Shown piece by piece: positions 126 through 64,000 of a stretch of 64,000 nucleotides of DNA (its first letter is position 1; every line of letters begins with the position of its first letter). The translations under genes and the position numbers were made by a program. Source of the DNA: a virus (taxonomy: Duplodnaviria > Caudoviricetes); IMG/VR virus record IMGVR_UViG_3300037520_001069, positions 1,967 through 65,966 of that record; one strand, given 5' to 3'. Below the pieces are notes generated by a model that did no database searches, was not told the origin of the DNA, and saw only the letters and a program-made list of their open reading frames with translations.

Positions 126-366
126 GTTCATCGTCTGCGAACCGATCAATGAGGAGATCCGCACGGACTCTGGTCTCATGCTGTCCGAGAAGGACGCCGA
201 CAACATTCGGTACCGGATGGCCAAGGTCATCTCCCCGGGGAGCGAAGTCTCCGTCATTAAGGAGGGCGACGTGGTGTACTACGATCGGAGCGCTGGGTTC
301 AAGATCATGATTCAGGATCTTCCGTACCTAGTGATCTCCGAGAGAGATGTCGTTGTCGTACTCTGA
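109..366 (+). CDS. groES: Co-chaperonin GroES
   Basis: 85 aa with RTDSGLML mobile loop, AKVISPG, IKEGDVVYY and ISERDVVVVL end; adjacent to groEL. Confidence 0.9.
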   Translation: MKAINKFIVCEPINEEIRTDSGLMLSEKDADNIRYRMAKVISPGSEVSVIKEGDVVYYDRSAGFKIMIQDLPYLVISERDVVVVL

Positions 367-751
367 CGTTCATATTCTCGATCATTCGCCGGTAGACCTT
401 GTGTGAGTAGGGCACCTTCCGGGCAAAGATCTCGTTACTGTCGGGGTTTTCTGATATCTCTTCGCCTTCGAGCTTCTTGTAGATAATGGTGACCATAGCC
501 TTGGCCGAAGGCGTTATGGCGAAGAGCTTTTTGGGCTTCTCCTGGACGACGCCGACAAAACCATTCTGGATGAGTCGTTCCATCCTGTTCCTGTCCCACT
601 TAACGCAGGACTCGATCCCATCGAACATTTCCCTGGAGAAGTACTTCTCAGAGTAGATGAGCAGCAGGATGTCAAGGTCTTGCTCTTGGATGTTCCATTT
701 AACTTTGGCCCAGTAGCGAACTACGCGCCAGTACTTTAGGTAGTCTTTCAT
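305..751 (-). CDS. Putative winged-helix DNA-binding protein
   Basis: 148 aa; DLDILLLIY...MERLIQNGFV...LFAITPSAK resembles a MarR-like wHTH; TAATTTTG lies just upstream on the - strand. Confidence 0.55.
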   Translation of the reverse strand: MKDYLKYWRVVRYWAKVKWNIQEQDLDILLLIYSEKYFSREMFDGIESCVKWDRNRMERLIQNGFVGVVQEKPKKLFAITPSAKAMVTIIYKKLEGEEISENPDSNEIFARKVPYSHKVYRRMIENMNVRVRQRHLSRRSLGTEDPES

Positions 752-47282: not shown

Positions 47283-48511
47283 AAAAAGTCTCGTCTAAAG
47301 TGGTAAATGGTGTAATCCAACTTCTTAGTGACCATCTTGTATATCCGGACCTCTATGCCGCCATCGGAAAAAAGCCAGACAACATTGTTCTCAAGCCTAT
47401 CCATCGTGGTCATCCGGTCTCTTGATTGCCAATAAGATGTCGCACTGAAATCGATGTTGAAATATACAAGCAAATCGGCCTCCTTTAAAGAAATCCCCTC
47501 TCTGCCCGATATTATTTGCAGTGCTATGTGCTTGTCGGTCGAGTTGAACTCCTCCAAGTTATCGGTCAAGGTGTACTCAAGTACACTCTTCAGCAACTCA
47601 TACTCGGCTTTGAACTTGTAAAATATGCCAAGTTTCATGCCCGAAAAGTGAGTTCTGATGTAATGCGCCTTTGCGTAATCAAAACATAGGTGCTTCCCGC
47701 TCTCAAAAATTACCGTTCCAGAATAAATCTGGTGGAGTTTGTTCATCAACTTGACCTCTGTGTCTGCCAAAATAACTTCATCACCAACCCTCACAACCTT
47801 GTCCTTCTTCAGTTGCTTGGCGAGTTCGTGGGTGGCAGGACTCATTTCAACAGACTCTATCCTCTCATTTATGGTCGTCAAAAAACCGGCCTCTTGCTGA
47901 GTGAACGATATTGTGTATGGCTCCATCGCTTTCAGAATGCTCTTGTGCCCATCGCTATAGTCCTTGACATCATAGCCATTTATCTTCTTGGTCTTTAATG
48001 TCACATAGTCCCTTGCGAACAGGTAAAAGTTACGATACCCAATGAACGGATTTCCAGGGATGCCGTACATCTGATGATAAATCTGAGAGTAAGATTCGGG
48101 AGTTGGAGTTCCCGATAGCAGAACAACGCGTAATGGCTTATTAGCGTAAATCAGCTTCGCAATGTCAGAAGCCCTCCTGCTTGGCTTGGGAAACGCACCA
48201 AGGCAATGGGCTTCGTCCAATACCAAGAAATCCCACTTGCACTTGGGTAGTTTGTGGGCAGACTCGTAATTGGTCACCGTCACACTTAATGCCGTTCCGT
48301 AATTCTTTATGTCGGCTTGTATACCTGCAACTGCTTTTTTCTTCGTGAGGAACAATACTTGCCCTTGCCGTAATACTTTCTCACAACACGCAATGCTTGT
48401 AAGAGTCTTGCCCGTTCTGACCTGCATGGCCAAGTAAAGAAATCCGTGGCGACTCAATATCCTTGAGCCCCTATCAGATATGTCTATCTGATAATCTCTC
48501 AGCGTGATCAC
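47279..48511 (-). CDS. SF2 (SNF2-like) helicase
   Basis: LRDYQ, RTGKT, LDEAH, LSGTP, GREGISL and QSRDR. Confidence 0.88.
   Translation of the reverse strand: MITLRDYQIDISDRGSRILSRHGFLYLAMQVRTGKTLTSIACCEKVLRQGQVLFLTKKKAVAGIQADIKNYGTALSVTVTNYESAHKLPKCKWDFLVLDEAHCLGAFPKPSRRASDIAKLIYANKPLRVVLLSGTPTPESYSQIYHQMYGIPGNPFIGYRNFYLFARDYVTLKTKKINGYDVKDYSDGHKSILKAMEPYTISFTQQEAGFLTTINERIESVEMSPATHELAKQLKKDKVVRVGDEVILADTEVKLMNKLHQIYSGTVIFESGKHLCFDYAKAHYIRTHFSGMKLGIFYKFKAEYELLKSVLEYTLTDNLEEFNSTDKHIALQIISGREGISLKEADLLVYFNIDFSATSYWQSRDRMTTMDRLENNVVWLFSDGGIEVRIYKMVTKKLDYTIYHFRRDFL
47570..47587. repeat. One-mismatch copy of the 18-bp palindrome inside the helicase gene
   Basis: GGTGTACTCAAGTACACT. Confidence 0.85.
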
Positions 48512-51741: not shown

Positions 51742-52473
51742 TTAGAGAGTTTGATATATGGTGATTTGGCTTATGTTCTTTTTCTTCGTTGGTGATAGGT
51801 AAGTGTTGTAGACTTCAAGGGCCATCTCCACCTTTTCCCTGCCCCTTGCTACAAACTCATCGGATGCAGTAAACACCCCTATCATCTTGGTCTCCTTGTC
51901 AATGACAATGAACTTCATCGGCTTGCCGAATAGTTCGCCATAGATGTAGGCTTGGCTATCGTAGTTGTAACGATAAGCACTATATCTAAAGTCGGACAAT
52001 GACGATGTGGTCTTGATGTCATACAAGAAATCAGAGGCAACAATGTCTGCCTTACCCTTGAATGATTGACCCATAATCGTGCCAATCGCAGGTTGCTCAA
52101 ACTTGTTCCCTTTATCGTAGATGGTTGAAGACACCTCAAAGTTCTGCTTCAGAGCAGAGGCAACCTCCAACATAGCATCCGCCTCGTCCTGCAACAAGAG
52201 AATCTGCTTACCGCTATCTGCAACCGCTTGCTTATAGATGTTGGTGTTTCGGCTTGATGCTTGGACGATTTGAAACGAAGATGCTTTGTCGGGCTCAAGC
52301 ATGAGCGTGTGGAGGTATCTACCTTCCACCATCGCCTTGGTCTCCTCCTTTGGCTTACCAAAGTTCTTCGGGTCATTGATTAGCGTTCCAATGTCAGAAT
52401 TGGATAACCAATTCGCACCGAACTCTCCATAGTAGTTGTCATCAACTTTCAGTTTTTCAATTATCGTACTCAT
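51742..52473 (-). CDS. PD-(D/E)xK exonuclease (RecE/ExoVIII, DUF3799-like)
   Basis: LSNSDI, GRYLHTLMLEP, KGKADI, DIKTT and Y.YDSQAYIY. Confidence 0.85.
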   Translation of the reverse strand: MSTIIEKLKVDDNYYGEFGANWLSNSDIGTLINDPKNFGKPKEETKAMVEGRYLHTLMLEPDKASSFQIVQASSRNTNIYKQAVADSGKQILLLQDEADAMLEVASALKQNFEVSSTIYDKGNKFEQPAIGTIMGQSFKGKADIVASDFLYDIKTTSSLSDFRYSAYRYNYDSQAYIYGELFGKPMKFIVIDKETKMIGVFTASDEFVARGREKVEMALEVYNTYLSPTKKKNISQITIYQTL

Positions 52474-53077
52474 CTTTTAGGGATTTAATTGCGTTAAGGG
52501 AAATGTCATATTTTTCGTTGAATGCTTCAAGCAAGTCAGCGAAGGGCATACTCTTTTTGTTTGCCTTGAGATAAGCGACTACCTTATCCCAATTTTTGTC
52601 ACCGACATCAAGACCGACTCGCTCCTTGCTTGGTGTACTTGAGTACACCCTGCGACCCCTTGGTGTAGGCGTTGGTGCAGGCGTTTCGTCTTTGATATCT
52701 GTGTCCTCTCCAATCCACAACTGAATGCCAAGCCCATGCATGGCAATCGCCTTGGCGGTGCTACGCTGAATACTCTTGTTGACATCAGTTGAGGTAATCT
52801 TCTCAAGCGGAAGAGAGTTATTCCGAAAGTCCATCACGGGCAACATATCAATATGCTCTTGACCGCCAACGATGATTCCGACCTTCACATAAGCAGTCTT
52901 GCCATCCGTAAAGTAATTCAGCCCCGTGTGAGGAGACTCGTAGATGACCCTTTGGGCATCGGGGTACTCTTGCTTGAGCATATCCCAAGCGTTAGCCCAA
53001 GAGAGGTAGTCCATACCGCCCTTCTTCTCAACCTTGTCCTTGACACCGATTGAATTTAGTTTTTTGTAAGTTGACAT
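52457..53077 (-). CDS. Sak/Rad52-like ssDNA annealing protein (DUF1071-like)
   Basis: YLSWANAW, LPVMDFRN and DVNKSIQR...KAIAMHGLG. Confidence 0.85.
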   Translation of the reverse strand: MSTYKKLNSIGVKDKVEKKGGMDYLSWANAWDMLKQEYPDAQRVIYESPHTGLNYFTDGKTAYVKVGIIVGGQEHIDMLPVMDFRNNSLPLEKITSTDVNKSIQRSTAKAIAMHGLGIQLWIGEDTDIKDETPAPTPTPRGRRVYSSTPSKERVGLDVGDKNWDKVVAYLKANKKSMPFADLLEAFNEKYDISLNAIKSLKDEYDN

Positions 53078-53394
53078 AGTTTTGATTTAAGTAAATTGAT
53101 TTTTTTAATTGTTCTTTTGCTCGGTTTAATTTGCTCTATTCGTTCTTCTATTAAATACCTGGCGACAATTCTTACACCCTCAATCCAACCTATGCGGTAG
53201 AAGATGGCGACAAATTCTTTTGGCATATCCGTGTAGTATTCGCAATCGGATATGTTGTAAGAGAATGTCAGTTCTCCCTTCGCATGGATGCACTTGATGT
53301 AAAACTTGTAAGCCCACGAAGATTCAGTTCCTCTGACATACAAAGTTTCGCAATCGGTTATTGCCTCACTCCATATTTCGTCAGTTGTATACAA
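53056..53394 (-). CDS. Hypothetical protein
   Basis: 112-aa ORF within the operon. Confidence 0.5.
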   Translation of the reverse strand: MYTTDEIWSEAITDCETLYVRGTESSWAYKFYIKCIHAKGELTFSYNISDCEYYTDMPKEFVAIFYRIGWIEGVRIVARYLIEERIEQIKPSKRTIKKINLLKSKLCQLTKN

Positions 53395-53687
53395 GGTTCG
53401 GTGATTTTATCTACAACTGATTTGAAGAACTTGTCCTTCGCACACATTTGTCTGCAAGCGTTGACATTGTACCCAAATAAATTCGGGGGCATATCAAATC
53501 CTTTACGCTTGAAGAACTCGTAAATATAGATGGGTTCAATGAGACATTTGTGACAAATGTAGCAGAACGCTTGTCGCCCCCTTGTGATATGGCGTTTTTG
53601 CGTTTTGGTAAACAATGTATCAACTGACTCATACTTGAACTCTCTCTTTATTTCTTTCAACGCTAAATTAAATACATCATCTCTCAT
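53358..53687 (-). CDS. Hypothetical protein, possibly a degenerate DnaA domain IV-like HTH
   Basis: LFTKTQKRHITRGRQAFCYIC resembles the R....v.aRq..mY pattern of 46625-47074. Confidence 0.45.
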   Translation of the reverse strand: MRDDVFNLALKEIKREFKYESVDTLFTKTQKRHITRGRQAFCYICHKCLIEPIYIYEFFKRKGFDMPPNLFGYNVNACRQMCAKDKFFKSVVDKITEPCIQLTKYGVRQ

Positions 53688-53691
53688 TTCG

Positions 53692-54390
53692 TTAGTGTTC
53701 GTTTATTTTAATGTGCCTATTAGTTTTGACTCGCCTCCCACTACAAAGTCTACACTTTGAGCAGGTGGACATATAGCCTGCCTCCTTGGACGCAGGACAT
53801 TGAACCGCATCAACCTCTTGGCCTTCCTTCTTGACGATGAAAGCACGGAAGCCAAGTTGAAATGACTCTCTTGCCTCTTCATCGTTATGAGCGGATGCCA
53901 TAAAGTATTCTGCATAAGGCTGACACCAAGGCTTACGCCATTGGTGAGTGTAGCCCGTGTGACACTTGCTGACCTCTACCATGTCCTTTACCAAATCAAT
54001 GGGCATGAGACTCGGTTCTCCGTATGTGCCAAAGCGAACATATTTGCCCTTGCACATTTCAACTATCTTCCGCCTCTTCTCATCAGTCAACTCGGTGGTG
54101 TCCTTGATAGAGCGGAGCGAAGACAAGAAGCCGGAATACTGAAGGTACTTGTGCGTGTAGCAACCGCCCTCCCCCGCGTTGCGGGAGAAGGGGCAGTCCA
54201 TACAATTAGCCTTGTCATGTCCGAAGAAATCAGATTGTGTTGTCTTGCCGTTGAGAACTAAATTCAGTTGGTCTAACGAATAGGTGTAGGTCTGAACTAT
54301 TTGTTCCTTTGGCTCGGCAATCTTTTTGTTGGTAGTGAACGCAGAACTAACTACGAACAACCTGCTACCATCAGACCAACTTATTTTCAT
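53692..54390 (-). CDS. Cys-rich phage protein (Gp88/DUF7227-like, possible Fe-S or Zn enzyme)
   Basis: CMDCPF...CY, VRFGTYGEP, GYTHQW, CPAS and CSKCRLC; TATCTTTG 4 nt upstream of ATG 54390. Confidence 0.65.
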   Translation of the reverse strand: MKISWSDGSRLFVVSSAFTTNKKIAEPKEQIVQTYTYSLDQLNLVLNGKTTQSDFFGHDKANCMDCPFSRNAGEGGCYTHKYLQYSGFLSSLRSIKDTTELTDEKRRKIVEMCKGKYVRFGTYGEPSLMPIDLVKDMVEVSKCHTGYTHQWRKPWCQPYAEYFMASAHNDEEARESFQLGFRAFIVKKEGQEVDAVQCPASKEAGYMSTCSKCRLCSGRRVKTNRHIKINEH

Positions 54391-54565
54391 GTGACAAAGA
54401 TAGTTCAAAATCCCTATCAAGTTTAGCCTCATGCACTTTTTTCGCAAGTGCAGTATCTACCCTCAAAGGCGATTTGATTTCACAAATGGTCGGGAACACC
54501 CGACACTTACGGACTTGGCCTACGATGTAGGCTCTCCATCTATTGAACTCGGCTACCCTATCCAT
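54371..54565 (-). CDS. Hypothetical protein
   Basis: 64-aa ORF coupled to the upstream gene. Confidence 0.4.
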   Translation of the reverse strand: MDRVAEFNRWRAYIVGQVRKCRVFPTICEIKSPLRVDTALAKKVHEAKLDRDFELSLSHENKLV

Positions 54566-55151
54566 TGGCTCTTGATGTCATAAGTTGTTGCAAAAGGGAA
54601 CATTCTTGAATAAGTTCCTCCAAGGACGAATAGGTCTCACCATTTCCGTTCAACCTCAACCTCCACTCAAGACCCACTACTTCAGATGCAGACACCTCCT
54701 CGCCATCGGGCAACTTGATTGGGTTCTTTATCTGCTTGAGCGAGACTTTCAGAGGTATTGGGTCTATGCGTTTGCCCTTCACGGCAATGAACACATCTGC
54801 GAGTCCATGATAATGGATGGACGCAGGATTGTCCTTCAAGGTCTGAATCAAGTCCATAGGAGTGTTCCATCTTTGTGAGGCAAAGCCCATTGACCCTTCA
54901 ATCAAAGTAAAGCGAGAGCCAAACTCTTCGTGGAAATTGGCGAAATCCCGTTTGATTGACTCTTGCAGAGACGGGGCGATTGCGAGGTTTTTCGTAACAA
55001 CGGACTTCACATACTCGTCCTTCAACGATAAAGACTCGTTGATTTTTGCCATGTTGAAACGCTCGTACCTTTTGGTTGAGGTGGAGTCATTGATGTTTTC
55101 AAAGTTCCTCGTAAGGTCATTGATGATTTGTTGTTGTGATTGTGTTAACAT
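54558..55151 (-). CDS. Hypothetical protein
   Basis: MLTQSQQQII...; A-rich leader after the palindrome. Confidence 0.65.
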   Translation of the reverse strand: MLTQSQQQIINDLTRNFENINDSTSTKRYERFNMAKINESLSLKDEYVKSVVTKNLAIAPSLQESIKRDFANFHEEFGSRFTLIEGSMGFASQRWNTPMDLIQTLKDNPASIHYHGLADVFIAVKGKRIDPIPLKVSLKQIKNPIKLPDGEEVSASEVVGLEWRLRLNGNGETYSSLEELIQECSLLQQLMTSRANG

Positions 55152-55203
55152 TTTTTGGTTTTTAAAAAGTGAAAGAAAAGGGTGTACTTGAGTACACCCG
55201 AAA

Positions 55204-55917
55204 TTAAGATTCTGCAAGCAATAAGGTTCGGTACTCGTCTGCCGTCAAGTGCCGGTGGTGTTTGAGCCTTTCATATCCGCCCTTCGGCTTGACAAGGATG
55301 CAGTCTCCTTGACGGAGGATGTGGCTAATATAACCCTCGGCAATATCGGTGGTGATTGTCCAAGCCACGCAGTCAATAGCATTAACCACCTTCGGGGCTT
55401 CTCTTTGCTGACTTGCCCATGAACTCCAAGTATCTTTTTGTTTCGTCATATACACCGAATAAATATCAACCCATAGCAAATACTCTCGGTCGGTAGAGGT
55501 GTCCTTGCAGGTGATGTAGTAGAACTTCTCGCCTTTATTGATAGGCGACCTCCAATCGTTGTCAATGTCTCTAAACAAGTCCTCGCCATTTAACTCGTAC
55601 AAGCGGTAGGTATCGTCAAACTTATGCTCAACAAGTTCACCGCTTTCGGTCACCCACATGGTGGTCTTGGCAATAGACTCTTCGTTGATAAGACGAACAT
55701 TCAGTTGCTCTTTCATCCGCTCAAGCCCAAGGCAATTTAGTGCAACCCTACGGGCCTCCACATTGTGGGTGTCTCGGACGATGTCTTGGAATGTGGGAGG
55801 CACGATGCTATCCCAAATGTCTTCAAGCCCTGCGAATGGCGTGTCGCCATATTTCAATTTAAGTAGACCACATCCGATGTTGTAGTCAAATTCTTGGTTT
55901 TGGATTATTATTTTCAT
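55204..55917 (-). CDS. DUF6745-like phage protein
   Basis: NVEARRVA...CKDTSTDREYLLWV...AIDCVAWT...RQGD. Confidence 0.6.
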   Translation of the reverse strand: MKIIIQNQEFDYNIGCGLLKLKYGDTPFAGLEDIWDSIVPPTFQDIVRDTHNVEARRVALNCLGLERMKEQLNVRLINEESIAKTTMWVTESGELVEHKFDDTYRLYELNGEDLFRDIDNDWRSPINKGEKFYYITCKDTSTDREYLLWVDIYSVYMTKQKDTWSSWASQQREAPKVVNAIDCVAWTITTDIAEGYISHILRQGDCILVKPKGGYERLKHHRHLTADEYRTLLLAES

Positions 55918-56549
55918 AGTTCTCTATCTTGTGTGATAAAATATCTTGTTTGGAAATTGCACTCTAATTTGTCATTGCTTTCGTATTCAAACGATAAGCC
56001 TTCATCGTGTAACTCAATATCGTCTCCATACCCTTGCTCAATGTCAAAGTTATGGTTCAGTAGTTGGGTTCTGATAGCATCAATGAATACACTCAAAGCC
56101 TCTTCGTCCTTGTCGGTCAAAATGCAGTCGCCCTTGTAGTTGACCTCGCACTCGCCCCCATTGTACGGATTGCCACTCATTGAGTCAATCTTCGCAAGGA
56201 TGGATTCTTTGACCCAATCATCCACCTTTACCTCTTCAGCATTCGTAGCGGTTTCTTCGTATTCCGACCTTGAGGACTTGTTAAAGTACAAAGTTTCGCC
56301 ATCATCCTCCATTCCGATAAAGACATCGCCATGCTCACCAAGATAGTGCCCGTCACTGCACTCGTAAAAGGTCACTTGATTGTAGACCTCATTTGATAGT
56401 AGGTCTTCCAATTCCGTGTCATGTATACGCTCTCCGCCCTCATTGTATAGGGCCATTTCCGTATCATTCATGGAGTCGCCCCCTGCCGAAAAGGTGAACT
56501 TCGCCTCATCCACATTCAGTTTTTTCCATAGTTCTAAAATCTTATCCAT
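55914..56549 (-). CDS. Very acidic protein (DUF6878-like N-terminus)
   Basis: FSAGGDS motif; strongly Asp/Glu-rich. Confidence 0.6.
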   Translation of the reverse strand: MDKILELWKKLNVDEAKFTFSAGGDSMNDTEMALYNEGGERIHDTELEDLLSNEVYNQVTFYECSDGHYLGEHGDVFIGMEDDGETLYFNKSSRSEYEETATNAEEVKVDDWVKESILAKIDSMSGNPYNGGECEVNYKGDCILTDKDEEALSVFIDAIRTQLLNHNFDIEQGYGDDIELHDEGLSFEYESNDKLECNFQTRYFITQDREL

Positions 56550-56940
56550 TTTGTAGTTTTTGAATTAAGTTAGTTGCGTTAAGTTTTGATTCGTCATTGT
56601 CAATCTCCTTCACCCCGTTGCACATCCACGGCTGAACCTCAAGGTGCTTGAGATAGTCCTGCGGTGTAGGTACGAACTTCATGCGGAAATCTTCTGCTAT
56701 GTGCAACATGGCAACATCTATCGTGTCCACCCTCTTGCCGTCAGCATTGGTCAAGTTGTACCCGAATACCTTGGGGATAATCGTGTACGCAAACCATGTG
56801 TTGTGAGTCAGAGCCCTTGATGAATTATTGTTCATCGTGGCCTTCGGTGAGTCAATCAGTTCATGGATGGGGAGGTAGTCTTCTACCTTACCTCCCCACC
56901 GCTTGACCGATGATTGCGAGTGAATGAGTGGGTTCGCCAT
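56542..56940 (-). CDS. DUF6915-like protein
   Basis: MANPLIHSQSSVKRWGG..EDYLPIH..ID..K...RALTH...HIAED...PT.QDYL. Confidence 0.75.
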   Translation of the reverse strand: MANPLIHSQSSVKRWGGKVEDYLPIHELIDSPKATMNNNSSRALTHNTWFAYTIIPKVFGYNLTNADGKRVDTIDVAMLHIAEDFRMKFVPTPQDYLKHLEVQPWMCNGVKEIDNDESKLNATNLIQKLQNG

Positions 56941-56941
56941 G

Positions 56942-57202
56942 TCAATCCCAAACTCTTGTAATGGTGCGACTGAACGGGTTGTACTCCACTTGTTTTCCGG
57001 TGATGTACTGACCCTTCTCAACTCGGAGCGATTGATGTTCGGCAAACTTACCCGAAGGTGTCTCATGCCTCAAGACCGAATCCTCGGCAACATCAAGCGT
57101 GATAGTTTCGCCATCCTCTCGGTGAGAGAAATCTCCGTAGAGCGTGTGTTGGTTGACCCCCTCACCCTTGAGGATGGTCAGTTTATTCTTGGACTTTGTC
57201 AT
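56942..57202 (-). CDS. Small His-motif protein (typical partner of DUF6745-like proteins)
   Basis: GEG..QH...LRHE...EH....G.Y....QVEYNP. Confidence 0.65.
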   Translation of the reverse strand: MTKSKNKLTILKGEGVNQHTLYGDFSHREDGETITLDVAEDSVLRHETPSGKFAEHQSLRVEKGQYITGKQVEYNPFSRTITRVWD

Positions 57203-57428
57203 AAGGTAAGTAGTTAAAGTTTTCTTCTAAAATCGGGTCACTCGGTTCGCAGTTAAGTTCAATGGCAAGGAATTGTTTGGCATCGTCAACGCTCGGAAAT
57301 TGCATGAGTTCATCGTTATCGTTCAGCAGAAACTCAAGCCCATTGATGCATATTCCCTCAATGTAGCGACCGATAACAAAAGAAGGGGGTGTACTTGAGT
57401 ACACCCCTTCTTGAGAAGGATTAGTCAT
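57183..57428 (-). CDS. Hypothetical early protein
   Basis: IGR.IEGI.INGLEFLL; contains an in-frame palindrome (VYSSTP). Confidence 0.6.
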   Translation of the reverse strand: MTNPSQEGVYSSTPPSFVIGRYIEGICINGLEFLLNDNDELMQFPSVDDAKQFLAIELNCEPSDPILEENFNYLPYDKVQE

Positions 57429-57747
57429 TGGTCTTACGCCTTACTTCAAGACCCTTAATCATGTCAGCCAAGAGGCTATCGCCATGTTGAGCCAAAAGCC
57501 TCTCCATGATTTTACGCTCGGCAATGACCACTCCCATGTGGAAGCCACTCATGTACACCTTACGCTCGTACTCGGTCAACCCTTCGGTCTCGCCAAGTTC
57601 ATCGTGGTGTAACCCGTTGAGGTGCGTCTCAAACATATCTGAAACCTTGTCCTCCTTGTCCCAAGACTTGAAGGCTTGGGCTTTGCTTTCATACGCCCAC
57701 TCATCGGTGAGGCCAAAAGCGACTGCAACTGAATCATTGTTTTCCAT
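57421..57747 (-). CDS. Hypothetical early protein
   Basis: 108-aa ORF with an A-rich leader. Confidence 0.6.
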   Translation of the reverse strand: MENNDSVAVAFGLTDEWAYESKAQAFKSWDKEDKVSDMFETHLNGLHHDELGETEGLTEYERKVYMSGFHMGVVIAERKIMERLLAQHGDSLLADMIKGLEVRRKTND

Positions 57748-57795
57748 TTTTCTAATTTTTTATGGAGTGAAACAAATAAGATAGGGTTTGCGGAT

Positions 57796-58122
57796 TTAAG
57801 CCTCCGCAAGGGGCTTGAAATAAATCTTCTTGGGCATATAGCCGAAGACGAATGAGGTGACCTTGCAGAGCCATAGCAATTTATTGTTATGGCGGTAAGT
57901 CGCACCGCCAATGAATGGCGTGTTGACAATCTTGGTCAGTACATCGCACCCGTCAAAAGGCTCGGTGTCAAGAGTGAGGGTGATTGTGGGTCGCCCTTCG
58001 GATAAGCGGTCAAGGAGCGTGTCTGCTCCTGCGACCATAGCAAGGTCGCCTTTTGCTCCTCGCCATTCGGGAAGGTCAATATACCATTGACCGCCCTCGT
58101 TGTTGAATGTGTATTGTGTCAT
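57796..58122 (-). CDS. DUF6717-like protein
   Basis: WYIDLPEW...MVAGADTLLD...WLC.V..FVFG..PKKIY. Confidence 0.7.
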   Translation of the reverse strand: MTQYTFNNEGGQWYIDLPEWRGAKGDLAMVAGADTLLDRLSEGRPTITLTLDTEPFDGCDVLTKIVNTPFIGGATYRHNNKLLWLCKVTSFVFGYMPKKIYFKPLAEA

Positions 58123-58130
58123 GTGTTTTA

Positions 58131-58158
58131 CGAAGATATTGCAATAATTGTGCCAAAG
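58131..58158 (-). promoter_or_regulatory. Sigma54-type -24/-12 promoter with a nested -7-like element
   Basis: - strand reads CTTTGGCAC-AATTA-TTGC-AA-TATCTTCG. Confidence 0.7.
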
Positions 58159-58163
58159 TGTTT

Positions 58164-58382
58164 TTATAGTTCAGAAATAATTAAATCGGACAAATAGTCA
58201 TACTCGGCATCTGACAAAATGTCCTCATCGTCAAAGTGTACAACCTTGTGCGTAGTGCATGAGCCATCGTGCATTTCCGTAACAATATATGCACCCGTTA
58301 CAAGTCGCCCGTCCTCCATGCGTAGGGAAAAAACGCCATCAGTCCTTGTGGACTCATGCTTCATGTTTAGGTCAGTTATCAT
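58164..58382 (-). CDS. Hypothetical acidic early protein
   Basis: ORF overlapping the upstream stop codon by 4 nt. Confidence 0.5.
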   Translation of the reverse strand: MITDLNMKHESTRTDGVFSLRMEDGRLVTGAYIVTEMHDGSCTTHKVVHFDDEDILSDAEYDYLSDLIISEL

Positions 58383-58693
58383 AGGTTGTAGTCTTGAAAT
58401 AGTGTATCGTCCTTGATAACTTTCTGCGACCATGCACTACTCCAATAGGATGGGCTGATGGAGGCAAGGATGTAGTCATCAAGGATGGTCGGGTCAACCT
58501 CGGTGTAGAGGTAGAAGGTGTCCTCGCATTGCTCAAGTGCTGATAGTGGATTATCCATCGGGCAATCCTCAATAGACATTGCGTAGTATGTTATGGTGTG
58601 ACCATTGCCATCGGGTTTGCAGATGGCAACCTCGCCCATGTCCGTGACGAAAATAGATGTGTTATCGGGTTTGGTTATCTTTCGGTATTTCAT
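58379..58693 (-). CDS. Hypothetical early protein
   Basis: 104-aa ORF, coupled to neighbours. Confidence 0.55.
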   Translation of the reverse strand: MKYRKITKPDNTSIFVTDMGEVAICKPDGNGHTITYYAMSIEDCPMDNPLSALEQCEDTFYLYTEVDPTILDDYILASISPSYWSSAWSQKVIKDDTLFQDYNL

Positions 58694-59079
58694 GTTTGGT
58701 GTGTTTTCTTCTCTTCAATTAAACGCTCTACTTGTTTCATTGGGGCAGTAAGAATTAGTTGACGCAACATTTGTCCATCCATCCCAATGGCCCTTAGTAT
58801 ATGCTCCATTGTTTCTCCATCTACATCTTGTAGCATTTCAATGGCCTCATTTTCATTGTAGGCTTTGGCTTGGTAGTCATCTTCGCAGGGCTTGGGTCGG
58901 TTGTCTATGATTTTTCCATCCGAATCCTCCCAATAGATTTCATTACCTTGAGAATCCCATTCACGCCTTACCCAACCTCCCAATGAGTTCTCAATGTAGA
59001 TTATGTTATGGTTCTTGTCTTTGATTATCAAATATTTATTGGTCTCAAAGTTCCAATTAATTTGTTGTGCGATTGTCAT
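58690..59079 (-). CDS. Early protein with a YD-like (xDS.GN.IY.E.S.G) repeat
   Basis: IIYIENSLG...EWDSQGNEIYWEDSDG. Confidence 0.6.
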   Translation of the reverse strand: MTIAQQINWNFETNKYLIIKDKNHNIIYIENSLGGWVRREWDSQGNEIYWEDSDGKIIDNRPKPCEDDYQAKAYNENEAIEMLQDVDGETMEHILRAIGMDGQMLRQLILTAPMKQVERLIEEKKTHQT

Positions 59080-59384
59080 AGCAGTTGGTTTAGTTTGTGT
59101 TCAAATTCTTGGGTCATGCCCTCAACATCGTACTCGGTTGTGCCATCCTCGTCCGTGCAGAAGGCGATGTCAACAACGATTGTGCTTGGTGGTGTACTTG
59201 AGTACACCTTGTCCATGAAGGCATGGATGCAGTCAAGTTCGCTCACGCTTAACTTGTTAAATTCGGAGGACAAGAAGTCTTGGTAGAGACTATGGGCTCT
59301 TTGCCATGTCTCGTCAAGGTCAGCATAACGCTCTTGCTGAAGGATGCGTGATGCCACGCAGAAAACGGGATAGTAGTGGTTCAT
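59076..59384 (-). CDS. Hypothetical early protein
   Basis: 102 aa; in-frame palindrome (VYSSTP) near the middle. Confidence 0.6.
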   Translation of the reverse strand: MNHYYPVFCVASRILQQERYADLDETWQRAHSLYQDFLSSEFNKLSVSELDCIHAFMDKVYSSTPPSTIVVDIAFCTDEDGTTEYDVEGMTQEFEHKLNQLL

Positions 59385-59689
59385 TTTTCAAAACGGATTT
59401 TAGGAATTGGAAGTGAAGGATTGAATGCAACGGAGCGACCCCCCTTGGTGTAGCCAAGGACAACGCCTATCCCCTTGATGATGGTGTCGCCAATCATAAA
59501 GGATTTGGAGTCTTGGACATAGAGACCCTCGTCATCTACCCACAAGTCATGTCGGTCGGTTAACACAACTCGGTCAACATACTGACATCCGATGGTCTTG
59601 TAGAGCGATTGAAGGATGTTGTCTTTGCCTCCATCTATCTCGGTGATGGTGGCGGTCTTTTCGTTTGGATTAATTACAAGTGCTTTCAT
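59381..59689 (-). CDS. DUF3846-like protein
   Basis: MKALVINP...LQSLYKTIGC..V..V...DLWVDDEGL. Confidence 0.75.
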   Translation of the reverse strand: MKALVINPNEKTATITEIDGGKDNILQSLYKTIGCQYVDRVVLTDRHDLWVDDEGLYVQDSKSFMIGDTIIKGIGVVLGYTKGGRSVAFNPSLPIPKIRFEK

Positions 59690-59748
59690 AGTTATAGTTT
59701 TAAGAAAGGGAGAGGTGTACTTGAGTACACCCCTCCCGTGGTAACCCC

Positions 59749-60624
59749 TTACCACATTTGTGAGTATTTGGTGTCTGATTGAATGGATTGAATGATTTTG
59801 GCAATCGTCTCCTTGGTGAACTCTGCCGTTGACTCTTCCTTGTGGAAGCATGGCAAGTCACCCGCAGGAAGTTCAATGACTATCTCCTCTTTGTCTACCC
59901 CGACAAATCGGAGGAGGGCTTCGTCCGAACAAACTCTGTGCCTATCCTTGCCCGTTTGCGAGCAACCATAAGAAGCGGAGAACGATGCTTCCTTGAGGTA
60001 TTCGCCCAAGCCCTCAAGCCATGCGAATCCGATACGCCTAAAGAAGGACGGGTGGGTGACCGCACCAAGGCGTGGGATGTCTAAAGGCTCGCAGTAGTCT
60101 TTGAGCCCGAAGATGTTCATGCCCTTGTCCTTGTAAACCCATGTGTTAGCGAAGTAACCGCTTATCTTGAGGTCGCAGGAGTCAGCCAAGAACTCGCAGA
60201 TGCTTGCCACCATGCCACCATGGTTGATGAAGGCATTGGCGGAGTGCCCTGCCGTGCAGTTGGATGCGAAGAGCAGATGTACCTTGGGCATCTTGTCGGT
60301 GTTGACCCTACGCCAATAGCATTTTTCCTCGCCTGCAATGAATGAGGCCATGTCAAGGTCATCGCCCTCCTCCGCAAGGATGTAGCCCTTGCGTGGTGCG
60401 GTCAGCGTGTCCACAATGTAGTCACGGGCTCGGATGATTTCCTTGGCATTGTAGCCGTCATAACATCGGTCAACCATCTCTTTGAAATTCTTGGCATCAC
60501 CATAGAATCTCTCGTCCTTATCCTTGCTATGGATGGACTCCGTGCCCATAGCCTTGGCTAATTGCACGAACTCATCAAAACCGCACTCGGTAAAGGTCAA
60601 GTCACCCTCTTGTTCCCACCTCAT
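59749..60624 (-). CDS. vWA-like partner of the MoxR-type ATPase
   Basis: G.DLD...F.AGEE.C, degenerate MIDAS (ASNCTA), HPSFFRR.GF and SYG; coupled to the AAA gene. Confidence 0.65.
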   Translation of the reverse strand: MRWEQEGDLTFTECGFDEFVQLAKAMGTESIHSKDKDERFYGDAKNFKEMVDRCYDGYNAKEIIRARDYIVDTLTAPRKGYILAEEGDDLDMASFIAGEEKCYWRRVNTDKMPKVHLLFASNCTAGHSANAFINHGGMVASICEFLADSCDLKISGYFANTWVYKDKGMNIFGLKDYCEPLDIPRLGAVTHPSFFRRIGFAWLEGLGEYLKEASFSASYGCSQTGKDRHRVCSDEALLRFVGVDKEEIVIELPAGDLPCFHKEESTAEFTKETIAKIIQSIQSDTKYSQMW

Positions 60625-61730
60625 AGGTCAACCCCCTCCGTGAGTCTTTTTACAACATCGGATGCGAGTCCGTTAAGGATGGAATACTCAAGGGCTTTCT
60701 TGATGGAATGCCGACCCGTAGCCACCAACTTGGTGGTGTGGATGGTTTGGCGTGGGCTGATGAGCAGATGGTCATAGCCCAACTCCTTGGCCTTGGCACG
60801 AATCTTCTGCACCGCACGGATGCCCTGCTCAACCTCGGCAATGGCCCGATACCTATTGGGCTCGGTCTCTGAGAAACGCTTGTCAATGTACGGCAGGGCT
60901 TGTGCCATCGCCACCTTGACCTCCAAAGCCGTGTCAATGTTCCAAATAATCCGGCTGAATCGGGTCAATGAAGAGCCGTCCTGCCGTTGTGCGGATGCAT
61001 ACGCCTTGGATGACCCGTGGCCCGTGGTGTTCTGACAAGCGACCACACGAAAGTCGGGGTGCTTGTCCACAAGTACGCCATCCGCAAAGGTGAACCGACT
61101 GCCCTCAAGCAGGCCGTTGAGCATGATGGTGACATCCGAATTGCCTCGGTCATACTCGTCAAGGATGACAAGACCGCCCTTGGTATAGGCATCGTACAAG
61201 GGCGTGGCCTTGTAATTGCCGTGCGGGTCTCGGTAGCCGACAAGAGAGGAGGTGGACATCATGCCGTTGAACGGCTGAAAGTAAGGAGTGAGCCCAAGTG
61301 CCTCGGCACATTGGAACGCACCGAAGGTCTTACCCGACCCTGCCTCACCGATGAGGGCGACATTGAGCCCCAAGTTGATTTGGTAGCACAACTCCTCAAA
61401 GTTCTCATGGGCATGGTCAAACTCTGCCGTTGCACCCGTGGGTGATATTAAACGGGTGACACGGGCACGGGGCAACTTATCAAGAGCCTTGGCGGTAGCC
61501 TCGCTGACATCTTGCTTGATGATTTGGGCAAGGCGTGGGTCGGCAAGGATGGAGGCCATAAGTGACTCGGTGTCTATGGCAGGTGTACTTGAGTACACCT
61601 CTGCCTCGCCCGATTCAAGGGTCTCACGCATGGCTTGAGCAACTGCGTCTGCCAACTGCGTCTGCACTTGGGCTTGGGCTTTGGAGGTCGCTCTTTGTAG
61701 CAGAGCCTCCCATTGGGGATTCTTGGACAT
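60621..61730 (-). CDS. MoxR/CbbQ/CobS-like AAA+ ATPase
   Basis: GEAGSGKT, ILDEYD, HPDFRVVA..NT.G.G, RQDGSSLTRF and ISPR. Confidence 0.88.
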   Translation of the reverse strand: MSKNPQWEALLQRATSKAQAQVQTQLADAVAQAMRETLESGEAEVYSSTPAIDTESLMASILADPRLAQIIKQDVSEATAKALDKLPRARVTRLISPTGATAEFDHAHENFEELCYQINLGLNVALIGEAGSGKTFGAFQCAEALGLTPYFQPFNGMMSTSSLVGYRDPHGNYKATPLYDAYTKGGLVILDEYDRGNSDVTIMLNGLLEGSRFTFADGVLVDKHPDFRVVACQNTTGHGSSKAYASAQRQDGSSLTRFSRIIWNIDTALEVKVAMAQALPYIDKRFSETEPNRYRAIAEVEQGIRAVQKIRAKAKELGYDHLLISPRQTIHTTKLVATGRHSIKKALEYSILNGLASDVVKRLTEGVDL

Positions 61731-61736
61731 AATGGT

Positions 61737-61949
61737 TTAGGGGTTTAAGGGTGAATAGGAATAGATTGGTGCTTGAGCCTCAATAAGGTCATCGGGGTTG
61801 GAGGTGAAGCCGTAGCGGTAGCCTCCGCCAATGTCCACGCACCACACTCCATTGCGGAGGTAGGCATCAGACTCGGCAAAGTATTGATACTCGCCATCAC
61901 GGGCTCGCATGAACATCATGCCTTTCTTAATCTCGGATACTTTAATCAT
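61737..61949 (-). CDS. Small early protein
   Basis: 70-aa ORF directly downstream of a promoter. Confidence 0.6.
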   Translation of the reverse strand: MIKVSEIKKGMMFMRARDGEYQYFAESDAYLRNGVWCVDIGGGYRYGFTSNPDDLIEAQAPIYSYSPLNP

Positions 61950-61972
61950 GGTGTAGGGGTTTAGGTTGTTTA

Positions 61973-62000
61973 CAAAGGTAGTGCAAAGATTGTGCCAAAG
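61973..62000 (-). promoter_or_regulatory. Sigma54-type -24/-12 promoter with a nested TAnnTTTG
   Basis: - strand reads CTTTGGCAC-AATCT-TTGC-AC-TACCTTTG. Confidence 0.72.
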
Positions 62001-62018
62001 TCAAAATCGGACACATTG

Positions 62019-62252
62019 TCATGACATAATGTCAAAACGGCAGATGGTGTACGCCATGACGCTCAAGATGTGGATGAGCCACATGGCCTTGATGTCAGAT
62101 AATGCCCCTTGGTAGGGCTCTTCGTCATAGGACAAGCCGTGGTATAGCCCAAGGATGAAGGTTGAGAAAAACAGCATAAGGTTTGCAAGCGAAGGCTCTT
62201 TGATGTATAGGGCAAAGAACGATGGGAGGATTGCGATGATTTTGTGTAGCAT
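62019..62252 (-). CDS. Small membrane protein
   Basis: 77 aa with 2-3 hydrophobic segments. Confidence 0.55.
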   Translation of the reverse strand: MLHKIIAILPSFFALYIKEPSLANLMLFFSTFILGLYHGLSYDEEPYQGALSDIKAMWLIHILSVMAYTICRFDIMS

Positions 62253-62323
62253 GATGGTAGTGAATTTAAGGGTGGAGAGGTTTAAGGGAGGAGAGGTGTA
62301 CTCAAGTACACCTCCCCCGTGGG

Positions 62324-62428
62324 TTAGATTTTACGCTTGTCTACTTTAGGGGCGGACAAGATTCGGATGATGGCCCTTGATAGGGCAAGCGTTCCAAGGA
62401 ACACCGATAGAACAATGAGAGTTTCCAT
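62324..62428 (-). CDS. 34-aa single-TM peptide (not in the ORF track)
   Basis: METLIVLSVFLGTLALSRAIIRILSAPKVDKRKI*; AAACCCC leader; flanked by palindromes. Confidence 0.55.
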   Translation of the reverse strand: METLIVLSVFLGTLALSRAIIRILSAPKVDKRKI

Positions 62429-62485
62429 GTGGTTTGATGGGGTTTAAGAGTGGGAGGTGTACTCAAGTACACCTCCCGTGGTGGA

Positions 62486-62677
62486 TTAAAGGCAGGGCGT
62501 TCCTGCGGAGAAAAGGTGGATGCACTCGCCTTGGGCATTGTACACGCCTACTGCGGTGTATTCAAGGTGGGCCGTGTATGAGGTGGCTTGGGCTTGAATC
62601 CTCGCCTCGGTCTCGGTTAGCGAGGTGGCGAGGAGGTGGTGGTGGTTGGGGGTTTGGGTTGCGATGATGGTAAACAT
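62486..62677 (-). CDS. Small early protein
   Basis: 63-aa ORF with an AAACCCC leader, flanked by palindromes. Confidence 0.55.
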   Translation of the reverse strand: MFTIIATQTPNHHHLLATSLTETEARIQAQATSYTAHLEYTAVGVYNAQGECIHLFSAGTPCL

Positions 62678-62799
62678 GGGTGATAGGGGTTTGGTTGGTG
62701 GTCGGGACGGAAGCCCCCCGACCTTGGGCTTGGAGCGGTGGAGGGAGGCGAATCCCTCGGTGTACTCAAGTACACCTCACGCCATGACACCGCTGAGGA

Positions 62800-63537
62800 T
62801 TAAAGGGAGACCCTGCTGAAGCCCTCGGATGGGGCAGGGGTCTCGGCAGGCTCACCGATGGCATCCACCAACGCCTGCCACACGGCAAGGGCACGCAGGA
62901 GTTCGGCCTTGGTGTTTGAGGTCTGAAGGTTGCCCTCGGCATCAATTCGGGCCGACACGCCACGGGTGGCATCGGGGTCAACATCGCCAAGTCTGAAGGA
63001 CAAGGTGCTGACGGCCTTGGGCTTGGCGGGGGCGGGGGCAGGGGCAACATCGCCCTCGGCCTCGGCCTCTTCAAGAAGGGTCTCAATCTGCTCCTCGGTG
63101 AGCCCTTTGGCATAGTCCACGAAGGCACGGAGCGAGAGGGTGGCATTGCCCTTGGCAACCTCCCTGCGGAACAGCATCACGGCCACGCTCTCTTTGCCGT
63201 CAGCGTCAAACCCAAGGCGGCCTGCATTCTTGAGGACGCTCACCCACTTGGACGATACCTCAGACTCGGTGACAAGCCCAACGGCCACAAGGTGGGCGTT
63301 CTCGGAGGGTAATTTGGTGGATGCGGTATGGCCCTCAATCTGAGTCCATACGGCCTTGAATCCATTGGAGTTGATGGCATCAACATTGGCACGGACAAGC
63401 CCTGCCCTACGGAGGGCGAGCCCGAAGCCGTCAACGGAGTGCTTTGCGTCAGCGGTGTTGAGGGCCTCAATTTGCTTGACCTTGAAGAGGTCAGCCATGG
63501 CGGTGAAATAGTTGGTGGCGGTTGGGGTGGTAGTCAT
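62800..63537 (-). CDS. First early gene, Ala-rich hypothetical protein
   Basis: 245 aa from MTTTPTATNY; lies downstream of a sigma54-type promoter. Confidence 0.7.
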   Translation of the reverse strand: MTTTPTATNYFTAMADLFKVKQIEALNTADAKHSVDGFGLALRRAGLVRANVDAINSNGFKAVWTQIEGHTASTKLPSENAHLVAVGLVTESEVSSKWVSVLKNAGRLGFDADGKESVAVMLFRREVAKGNATLSLRAFVDYAKGLTEEQIETLLEEAEAEGDVAPAPAPAKPKAVSTLSFRLGDVDPDATRGVSARIDAEGNLQTSNTKAELLRALAVWQALVDAIGEPAETPAPSEGFSRVSL

Positions 63538-63587
63538 GGGTGAAAGGGGTTTAGGTTGTGGGGCGGAATTGCCCCGTACCCCTCTCA

Positions 63588-63607
63588 TTGCAAACATCGT
63601 GCCAAAG
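63588..63607 (-). promoter_or_regulatory. Sigma54-type -24/-12 promoter
   Basis: - strand reads CTTTGGCAC-GATGT-TTGCAA. Confidence 0.72.
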
Positions 63608-64000
63608 ATGATTCAAAGGCTTTTGGCAGTCATTTCGGACATGGTGGCAGGGTTAACTGACAAGGTTAACATGACAAGGTGGCAGGGGGCAGGGGCTATC
63701 GGCCCTCCCGTGCCGTTTGGGGCGTTTTGTTGGTGTACTTGAGTACACCTTGTTTGTCTTGTGTTACACTTTCTCTCTCTCACAGCGTCACTCACTCTCT
63801 CTCTTTGGTGGCAGGGGACACGGCAGGGGGGACGGCATGACGGGGACGGGGACGGGCCGACATCGGGACGGCATGGGGGGTGCAGGGGGCATGACGGAAA
63901 CGGCAGAAATTTTGGCAGGGGGCAGGGTAGTCTGACCCCCCCCCACCGACCGAGGGGGGTACTTTCGCAATCGGGGGTCGGTCGCAAATCGGCCGGAGAA

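Follow-up and report, generated by a model that had tools for sequence, protein, structure and literature searches.

What reads an 18-bp palindrome that a phage carries in ten identical copies along one arm of its genome? The palindrome, GGTGTACT-YR-AGTACACC (written in full GGTGTACTNNAGTACACC and called P below), occurs in IMG/VR virus record IMGVR_UViG_3300037520_001069 (Duplodnaviria; Caudoviricetes), a genome in a single contig (65,966 bp) whose ends overlap by 127 nt. The window analysed here is the 64,000-nt stretch formed by bases 1967-65966 of this genome, and positions are those of the window unless stated otherwise. We find that P is a real, selected, phage-specific and sequence-specific cis element that is tied to early-gene borders. 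With regard to its function, we tentatively favour (at a probability of roughly 0.4) an operator for a phage protein of two-fold symmetry that regulates how the early arm is expressed, with the winged-helix protein P0001 as candidate binder.

Copies of the palindrome and their placement

A first-pass annotation of the window had reported ten mismatch-free copies of P, and all ten positions were recovered, i.e., exact copies start at 52632, 55181, 57388, 59191, 59714, 61582, 62295, 62456, 62759 and 63732 and thus lie within 52632-63749. None is expected, since each of 100 dinucleotide-preserving shuffles gave zero copies, and the entire 65,966-bp genome holds no exact P beyond these ten. When up to three mismatches are allowed, just two further P-like sites are found, each with a single mismatch (8898 and 47570; 0.19 expected). 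The isolated half-site GTGTAC is at chance level outside of P (15 observed, about 16 expected). On the plus strand, the central dinucleotide reads TG in seven copies and CA in the other three (62295, 62456, 62759), so both orientations reported for the window are present. The described density at the right end and the irregular spacing hold as well: four copies lie within the last 1.5 kb, followed by gaps of about 0.5-2.5 kb. Given distances of 143-2531 nt, whole genes between the copies and no regular short spacers, we also agree that the array is not CRISPR.

The genome is that of a podophage. Its plus strand encodes a P22-like portal, the terminase, virion proteins and a giant protein of 4696 aa, while the minus-strand arm (44.4-63.6 kb) encodes a prim-pol/helicase, an SNF2-type helicase, a PDDEXK exonuclease, a Sak-type single-strand annealing protein, an AAA_5 ATPase and many small open reading frames (ORFs) that match no recognised family. 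The exact and one-mismatch copies of P are placed as follows.

63732..63749: P in the divergent control region, without flanking stem extension; the first sigma54-type box (63604) follows 128 nt downstream
62759..62776: P in the spacer between ORF 62800-63597 and ORF 62486-62677, followed by a second small GC hairpin
62456..62473: P in a spacer, 12 nt past a TAA and 27 nt before an ATG, with stem extension GGGA/TCCC; centre inverted in the 92%-identical relative L159
62295..62312: P in a spacer, 42 nt before the ATG of ORF 62019-62252, with six extra stem pairs, two of which are G.U on the minus-strand reading; centre inverted in L159
61582..61599: P located 22 nt before an in-frame internal ATG (61559) of the AAA_5 ATPase ORF
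59714..59731: P in a spacer, 17 nt past a TAA, with an ATG 24 nt further on; it forms the core of a hairpin of 13 pairs (minus strand, 59708-59737) with TTTCTT behind it, and no other site of the arm is as terminator-like
59191..59208: P inside ORF 59076-59384, 111 nt before the next ATG
57388..57405: P in a spacer, 15 nt past a TAA; extended stem with CTTCTTTTGT tail (57386-57407, minus strand), terminator-like
55181..55198: P in a spacer, 5 nt past a TAA and 29 nt before an ATG; tail TTTTCTTTCA (55180-55199, minus strand), terminator-like
52632..52649: P inside the gene of the Sak-type annealing protein, at about residues 143-148, i.e., in the variable linker that follows the core domain
47570..47587: one-mismatch P with the outermost pair broken, inside the helicase gene
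8898..8915: one-mismatch P (arm position 13) in the terminase large-subunit gene, i.e., in the other arm

According to the ORF-based gene model, eight of the ten exact copies are located in spacers; this reduces to seven if the ATPase ORF starts at its first ATG. Since spacers make up only 9-10% of the early arm, the respective binomial p-values of the bias are 5e-7 (8/10) and 4e-6 (7/10). The copies inside ORFs are P 52632, P 59191 and, if the long ATPase ORF is real, P 61582. The latter is probably located in a spacer ahead of the true start, because the homology to the relatives L163 and L179 stops 5 nt away. That is, the earlier wording 'between and inside genes' is right in that both placements occur, but it understates the spacer bias. 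Five copies are found 22, 24, 27, 29 and 42 nt upstream of a start codon and 5-28 nt past the preceding stop. This strong preference for the gaps immediately before start codons speaks for a role in gene expression rather than for the earlier proposal that P protects, pulls in or organises the first-entering DNA.

Among the intragenic copies, P 52632 lies 158-159 nt ahead of the exonuclease gene, and P 59191 is exact in the relatives L142, L178 and L179, with flanks that are 67-70% identical in the latter two. The one-mismatch site at 47570 looks like a decaying copy, because the orthologous site of L160/L196 shows another arm change. The one at 8898 is probably not functional.

Three copies share a longer module, CCACGGGRG-P-TCYCC..CTTAAAC. 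Its CTTAAAC box (62442..62448, minus strand) is found 7 nt after P 62456, and similar boxes follow P 62295 (62280-62286), P 59714 (59698-59704) and, less regularly, P 55181 (55161-55166). The box may be promoter-like or part of a pyrimidine-rich tail.

Just after P 62759, the minus strand carries the second small hairpin mentioned above (62720-62758, GAGGGA-TTCGCC-TCCCTC). In relatives, it reads GAGGGTT-CGCA-AACCCTC or GAGGG-CTCGCA-CCCTC, i.e., it shows compensatory changes, and it may be a structured RNA or a terminator.

Conserved arms, free centre and arrays in relatives

A metagenome scan for the 18-mer returned 74 stretches, of which 16 align to the window at 65-98% identity. In 17 orthologous comparisons, none of the 238 positions within the 7-bp arms differs at flank identities of 67-99%; the relatives were fetched for holding at least one exact P, which biases the short loci towards conservation, such that the long loci (L160, L179, L195/L196) carry this argument. 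The flanks of the same comparisons agree in 1653 of 1909 positions (67-84% in nine of them). All 14 differences within P fall into its central 4 nt and comprise TTGA/TCAA flips at 62295, 62456 and 62759 as well as CCAA at 61582. A similar result is observed for 32 copies with at most two mismatches from eight relative loci: 17 are exact, six differ by G1-to-A only, five in the centre only and four by an arm change, such that the inner 6-bp arms are kept in 28/32. The centre-only variants are CCAA/TTGG and TTCG/CGAA, and a further site in L191 reads TCGA. Where the centre flips, the direction of the asymmetric flanks (CCACGGGRG ... TCYCC ... CTTAAAC) stays the same.

As judged from these alignments, purifying selection acts on the arms only. 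The first-pass annotation had taken the conservation of the asymmetric centre as a sign of recognition, which does not hold: orthologous centres are TTGA, TCAA, CCAA, TCGA or TTCG between fixed arms. Because the arms are fixed while the centre flips and mutates, the recognised unit consists of two inverted 6-7-bp arms at fixed spacing, with centre and orientation free. Such orientation-independent recognition fits a symmetric dimer. The flipping itself would be the expected product of template switching or inverted gene conversion at a DNA palindrome and shows solely that orientation is neutral.

The TTGA/TCAA inversion recurs at the same sites (62295-62312, 62456-62473, 62759-62776) in L159, L163, L179, L195 and L200. 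This repeated inversion is the small-inversion signature of a DNA palindrome.

Arrays of this kind are not confined to the window. The absence of any analogous end-biased palindrome from relatives had been named as a finding that would speak against a cis-acting system; relatives do carry palindromes biased to one arm. The closest public record, MW202828.1 (60,850 bp, primase 62% identical), holds 14 copies of GTGTCGTTAACGACAC in its early arm, seven of them in annotated spacers, which make up 12% of that arm. Eight copies precede a start codon by 16, 16, 17, 17, 19, 19, 23 and 39 nt, and at least five begin exactly 3 nt past the preceding TAA. Furthermore, MW202828 has its own palindrome in the same annealing-protein linker that holds P 52632. 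The small early ORFs between the P copies show no detectable homology between the two phages, which have only the replication module, the structural genes, GroEL/ES and the winged-helix gene in common. A third version is found in the relative L133, i.e., GGTGTC-N6-GACACC with seven exact-arm copies and two near-copies, where N6 varies in sequence and is constant in length. The architecture shared by all three, GTGTM-N6-KACAC, occurs 11 times here, 14 times in MW202828 and 9 times in L133, compared to 0.02-0.12 expected occurrences. Among further relative loci, 9 of 25 contain it, with one or two occurrences in eight loci and none in 16.

No repeated palindromes were found in 14 primase-linked relative loci with long flanks, nor was a P-like or repeated palindrome array present in bases 1-45000 of the cultured Flavobacterium phage elemoF. 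Two candidate arrays were rejected, namely the TTAAATTAA-type repeats of elemoF (AT-rich low complexity) and a repeated 13-mer of L036 (a coding tandem repeat). When searching via the AAA ATPase, two distant related loci were obtained among viral contigs and none among metagenome contigs, and a Megablast of 52000-64000 against phage records gave no match. Palindrome arrays are therefore a trait of some lineages and not of the whole phage family.

AT-rich lake contigs, too, have the identical 18-mer in their spacers, in the same layout TAATCRG-P-about 17-20 nt-ATG. Three of these contigs encode early proteins with 50-59% identity to MW202828, L133 or L130. Since contigs that resemble MW202828 or L133 carry the identical 18-mer, the type of P does not simply follow phage phylogeny. 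Within 596 Gb of prokaryote genomes, the exact 18-mer is found in 24 stretches, where our own arithmetic gives roughly 35 by chance, and no Bacteroidota record among them contains it. This chance-level occurrence argues against a host regulon site.

Several other repeats were seen along the way. Five of the 24 prokaryote stretches (L097, L101, L104, L113, L114) belong to a repeated element with identical 40-nt flanks that is present at least five times in one Chloroflexia metagenome-assembled genome. A separate group of contigs shows a TTAA-centred hairpin version with common flanks ACCAAGGTGGTGT...; no relation of either to the phage was seen. In lake contigs L149 (7440-7500), L140, L184, L186 and L197, the extra half-sites AGTGTACTC and GGTGTACTG/C directly adjoin an exact P and resemble a multi-site operator region; the kinship of these contigs to the phage is not established. 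The same applies to the viral contig G001 (59 kb), whose five GTGTCG-loop-CGACAC sites with variable loops were not used. Early spacers of L135 (14400-15700) hold variable GC hairpins with compensatory changes, several of which contain GGTGTA/TACACC; five times, such a hairpin is followed by an invariant TTGGTAGTATGA plus a ATTTAAAAG-like box. These hairpins are a different solution at the same spacer positions. Finally, L136 (13032-13302) has seven iteron-like direct copies of AGTACAATAAGT within 270 nt of its control region.

Possible readers of the palindrome

We favour a DNA operator, in which the inverted arms GGTGTAC / GTACACC, 4 nt apart, would be recognised irrespective of centre and orientation. 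Copies placed in the short stop-to-start spacers of early genes, and in the control region that precedes the first promoter, would allow a bound dimer to gate each cistron by repression or as a roadblock, possibly also by activation. The binder could be a MarR-like winged-helix dimer, expressed from a host-type promoter of its own, that would probably shut off the early arm as infection proceeds. At the five spacer copies with extended stems, the same cassette probably also attenuates transcription. We infer double-stranded DNA binding, the identity of the binder and the direction of the effect. The candidate binder is the following protein.

305..751, minus strand: P0001, 148-aa winged-helix protein of MarR-like topology, preceded by a host-type TAATTTTG box

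The first-pass annotation had pointed to this gene as well; it exists at the reported position and lies on the minus strand, not the plus. Conservation of P0001 extends throughout the phage family, with 26 relatives in databases, and the annotation of the MW202828 homologue reads 'repressor protein'. The structural model (predicted local distance difference test, pLDDT, of 89) shows the order of helices and wing known from MarR, with helices at residues 4-19, 23-32, 40-50, 56-62, 81-94 and 115-140 and wing strands at 66-70/76-79. Best Foldseek matches are MarR-family chains, some of them DNA-bound, at weak scores (E about 0.01, TM-score 0.45-0.5). Pfam gave no family for P0001 (E up to 0.01) and PHROGs only phrog_17028, a family without assigned function. 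A homodimer is predicted with a score of 0.71, compared to 0.00 for the best of three controls; this mark was reached by 20/30 proteins solved as one-chain pairs and by 1/23 solved as single chains. The prediction runs agree in at least 74% of contacts with a partner pLDDT of at least 82, and the predicted symmetric interface comprises residues 1-9, 27-34, 90-95 and 119-126. Because solved MarR dimers exist, the dimer score shows likeness to MarR and is no proof of dimerisation. P0001 is thus predicted to be a MarR-like dimeric winged helix. In accordance with the earlier suggestion, the geometry of P fits an operator for dimeric (winged) helix-turn-helix proteins. The recognition helix and wing of P0001 show differences in the alignment, which three P types do not suffice to read as co-variation with P. 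The only other recognised DNA-binding proteins are two DnaA-domain-IV-like ones (46625-47074, 53358-53687). A DNA-level hint is given by P 63732, which is located upstream of the first recognisable early promoter.

Several observations weigh against the operator. The link between P0001 and P rests on symmetry, family-wide conservation and the small number of other recognised DNA-binding proteins, and the short loci of the conservation analysis carry the selection bias stated above. The winged-helix family also occurs in relatives without arrays (e.g., elemoF), and the promoter of the winged-helix gene itself has neither P nor half-sites beyond chance. The identical 18-mer is present in AT-rich contigs that resemble phages using other versions. 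Moreover, the five extended stems, the G.U pairs on the transcript strand and the three terminator scores have the look of an RNA-level element, and a roadblock operator would not need the tight start-codon spacing of 16-23 nt seen in the AT-rich lineages.

The latter points lead to the main rival reading, in which P would be a transcribed hairpin (7 bp, 4 nt) in intercistronic leaders of polycistronic early mRNAs. It could act as attenuator or terminator, as processing or stabilising element, or as target of a sequence-specific RNA-binding protein or endoribonuclease through which each early cistron would be set in its translation or decay. The RegA/RegB logic of T4 and the RNase III sites of T7 are respective analogies. 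We regard this as possible, if doubtful. Five spacer copies have stems of 8-14 pairs; with their T-rich tails, 59714, 57388 and 55181 rank with the best terminator-like sites on the minus strand of the arm, and the tails of 62456 and 62295 are pyrimidine-rich. G.U pairs favour the transcript strand at 62295 (-22.3 vs. -20.8 kcal/mol) and 59714 (-24.8 vs. -20.9 kcal/mol). The distances of 16-42 nt to start codons, the MW202828 copies that directly follow a TAA, the compensatory changes among the hairpins in the equivalent spacers of L135, and TTCG among the loop variants are also in accordance with an RNA element.

On the other hand, there is no overall strand bias in stability, i.e., the mean difference is -0.22 kcal/mol here, +1.27 in MW202828 and -0.03 in L133. 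The MW202828 hairpins are not terminators, since they are weak (-6.8 kcal/mol), unextended and followed by A-rich instead of T-rich sequence. Features of a terminator (GC stem plus T tract) are found for 3/10 P copies and partly for 62456 and 62295, but neither for the other five nor for any of the 14 MW202828 copies. Furthermore, genes after the 'terminator' copies have no recognisable promoter of their own and would be silenced by efficient termination. A purely structural stem would not need arms that are invariant over flank identities of 67-99%, P 63732 lies upstream of the first recognisable promoter, and an Rfam search of the whole window gave no family. The metatranscriptome contigs X19 and X21 are short pieces that span P 52632, 55181 and 61582; they provide no information on RNA ends or strand, and such libraries may contain DNA, so neither these contigs nor stretches that they leave uncovered bear on initiation or termination at P.

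A third reading is that P is kept mainly as a recombinogenic cassette, akin to the promoter-early stem-loops (PeSLs) of T4-like phages, by which early genes are swapped, duplicated or deleted between co-infecting phages while gene conversion upholds the identity of the copies. It is compatible with an operator or RNA element as the molecular function. As the main reason for the array, we think it quite unlikely. The evidence for P at module borders is modest: of 51 homology breakpoints, 7 are no more than 30 nt away from a P, compared to 3.3 for random placement (p about 0.04), but these represent four distinct places in lineages that are not independent, and the other 44 are at ordinary gene borders without P. 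Lake-variant contigs show joints of 62275 to 59699, 62327 to 62440 and 62487 to 61756 as well as a 224-nt insert at 62432-62439. The joint ends are 14-24 nt from P, and one joint unites the left flanks of P 62295 and P 59714; since these contigs were aligned at 85% likeness, the joints are weak hints only. Genes between P copies are not homologous to MW202828 while replication and structural genes are conserved, the module around P is shared by three copies, and the same 18-mer occurs in lineages with otherwise different early genes. In PMC4122927, PeSLs are described as composite terminator/promoter repeats that mediate shuffling. Conversion alone, however, fails to explain arms that persist across lineages diverged by 20-30%, the regular distance between copy and start codon is left unexplained, and 18 bp is generally short for efficient homologous recombination.

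Operator and cassette might also be combined. We consider it unlikely, but worth stating, that P arrays form an exchangeable 'regulatory barcode' of freshwater Flavobacteriia podophages, with each version (GGTGTAC-4-GTACACC, GTGTCG-4-CGACAC, GGTGTC-6-GACACC) read by a matching symmetric phage factor. If so, and because the barcode is present at each border between early genes, a cassette that is taken over from a co-infecting phage of equal barcode by P-to-P recombination would fall at once under the timing control of the resident. A single 18-bp element would then link regulation to modular gene exchange and explain the identical 18-mer in lineages with otherwise unrelated early genes.

Two promoter-related roles had been proposed as alternatives before. 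The first, an extruded DNA hairpin that serves as promoter for a phage or virion RNA polymerase within the giant protein, as in phage N4, is very unlikely.

29435-43525, plus strand: giant protein, 4696 aa, with DUF7178

The stem-loop of P (7 bp, 4 nt) is near the size given for N4 in PMC4496689 (5-7-bp stem, 3-base loop). Most genes of the P arm lack the host-type TAnnTTTG box that precedes many genes of the other arm, leaders would be 14-40 nt long if transcription began about 11 nt from the loop centre, and a giant, presumably virion, protein is present. No polymerase signature was found in that protein by searches at the level of sequence, profile and language model, which do not exclude a distant fold as the protein was not folded: Pfam reports DUF7178 alone (residues 2958-3052) and no polymerase family, PHROGs only families without assigned function, and the PDB sequence search no match, nor does the protein or its MW202828 homologue contain a DFDxD-type motif. 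A language-model atlas relates residues 1-2046 to phage proteins with polyvalent-protein LPD domains and one cluster with ART-PolyVal (scores below 0.9), with no usable match for residues 2047-4092; the giant protein may thus be a polyvalent protein delivered with the virion. Recognition by the N4 polymerase reads loop bases -11 and -10 (PMC4496689), whereas the loop of P flips and mutates freely. Finally, N4 has three such promoters and not 10-14 including intragenic ones, and the arm has three sigma54-type promoters of its own.

63589-63604, minus strand: sigma54-type -24/-12 box, cttTGGCAC-N5-TTGCA, perfect
61982-61997, minus strand: sigma54-type -24/-12 box of the same form, perfect
58140-58155, minus strand: sigma54-type -24/-12 box of the same form, perfect

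The second role, an enhancer (upstream activating) site of these promoters, deserves hardly any credence: the three perfect boxes are real (about 0.06 expected by our own arithmetic) and P 63732 is at a typical enhancer distance from the first, but only this one of the ten copies lies at about 80-200 nt upstream of a box, the nearest upstream copies of the other two boxes are about 300 and 1040 nt away, six copies are downstream of all boxes, the AAA protein of the arm belongs to AAA_5 and not to Sigma54_activat, and the reading fails since MW202828 (14 palindromes), like L133 (7), has no such box. All three boxes point along the early arm, and the one at 61997 is conserved in L159, L163, L179 and L195 (70-92% identical). 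Sigma54-dependent early promoters would be unusual in a phage.

Genome setting and comparison with known systems

According to primase and winged-helix protein, the relatives of the phage are phages of Flavobacteriia (Flavobacterium, Maribacter, Polaribacter and Cellulophaga) as well as uncultured contigs. The stretch is present in 24 listed runs from 23 studies. The 18 runs with a large share are DNA from lake or other freshwater metagenomes, except for one labelled crustacean metagenome, and RNA runs with a small share include sediment and aquatic metagenomes. TAnnTTTG, the -7 promoter box of Bacteroidota, is found 3-16 nt upstream of start codons in at least seven plus-strand genes including GroEL, and ahead of the winged-helix gene.

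770, 1699, 6526, 13376, 16714, 18696 and 26859, plus strand: TAnnTTTG boxes
766 and 44596, minus strand: TAnnTTTG boxes
539 of genome contig G000:C1, plus strand: TAnnTTTG box of GroEL

Their closeness to the start codons suggests leaderless mRNAs or very short leaders. No TAnnTTTG box adjoins a P, and the box is largely missing from the P arm. A scan for sigma70-type promoters gave 27 matches vs. 27.9 in shuffles, none of them paired with P.

GroEL (554-2091 of genome contig G000:C1) and GroES (109-366 of the window) are both encoded by the phage and conserved in MW202828 and the elemo phages. The divergent control region (window 63600-64000 and, just outside of it, 180-270 of G000:C1) comprises about six ATGTCG iterons, CT-rich runs and the G-rich repeats GGCAGGGG and GACGGCATGACGG; it may be an origin or terminal region.

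For this abundant lake phage, the array provides a testable handle, i.e., a defined 18-mer, a 148-aa candidate binder and three natural variant codes. With it, the timing of early genes can be studied as well as whether regulatory repeats drive the fast turnover of early cassettes. If the pairing of site and protein is true, it would provide a compact orthogonal operator/repressor set for the genetics of Flavobacteria.

As far as we know, gene regulation in phages of Bacteroidota is almost unexplored. A literature search for such an array in Flavobacterium phages, with supplementary motif lists outside its scope, returned nothing relevant. MarR-family operators and LexA-type CTGT-N8-ACAG boxes are 16-20-bp palindromes for dimers of winged-helix or helix-turn-helix proteins. 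The GTGT-N8-ACAC of P has the same geometry, but such operators come as one or few sites at the promoters of a regulon, whereas 10-14 identical sites punctuate an operon-like arm here. The phiC31 inverted repeats bound by the c repressor and the MotA boxes of T4 are also short phage-specific protein-binding sites in many highly conserved copies, located between early or middle genes. The hairpin promoters of the N4 virion RNA polymerase resemble P as small DNA hairpins with conserved stem bases before early genes at one genome end; they differ by three copies, a 3-base loop that is read and a known virion RNA polymerase (PMC4496689), while for P the loop is free and a polymerase was not found.

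Among known systems, the stoperators of Cluster A mycobacteriophages and the PeSLs come closest to P. In PMC9283540 and PMC6550527, stoperators (L5, Bxb1, TipsytheTRex) are 20-30 near-identical short repressor sites dispersed in the genome, mostly in short intergenic spaces and not at promoters, where the repressor stops elongation; the site sequence varies between related phages. P is alike with regard to many near-identical sites in short intergenic spaces. In contrast, stoperators are described there as asymmetric 13-14-bp sites bound by a monomer, with a required orientation that follows transcription, whereas P is a palindrome whose asymmetric centre occurs in both orientations among co-directional genes and thus does not follow such an orientation rule. 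The same papers place stoperators on both arms of temperate phages and describe a protein of helix-turn-helix plus stoperator domain; P is confined to one arm of a phage for which no lysogeny genes were noticed, and the MarR-like candidate is unrelated. PeSLs are, according to PMC4122927, repeated stem-loop cassettes between small, fast-changing early ORFs of plastic regions, with a version per phage group and an implication in cassette shuffling. P recalls this layout, with modest evidence for a place at exchange borders. They are further given as having a recognisable sigma70-type promoter and a loose stem (GN-loop-CN), whereas P has an invariant stem, comes without host-type promoter and is also found inside genes. 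That is, P is set apart from stoperators by its symmetry and orientation-independence, and from PeSLs in that the stem is invariant and no host-type promoter accompanies it.

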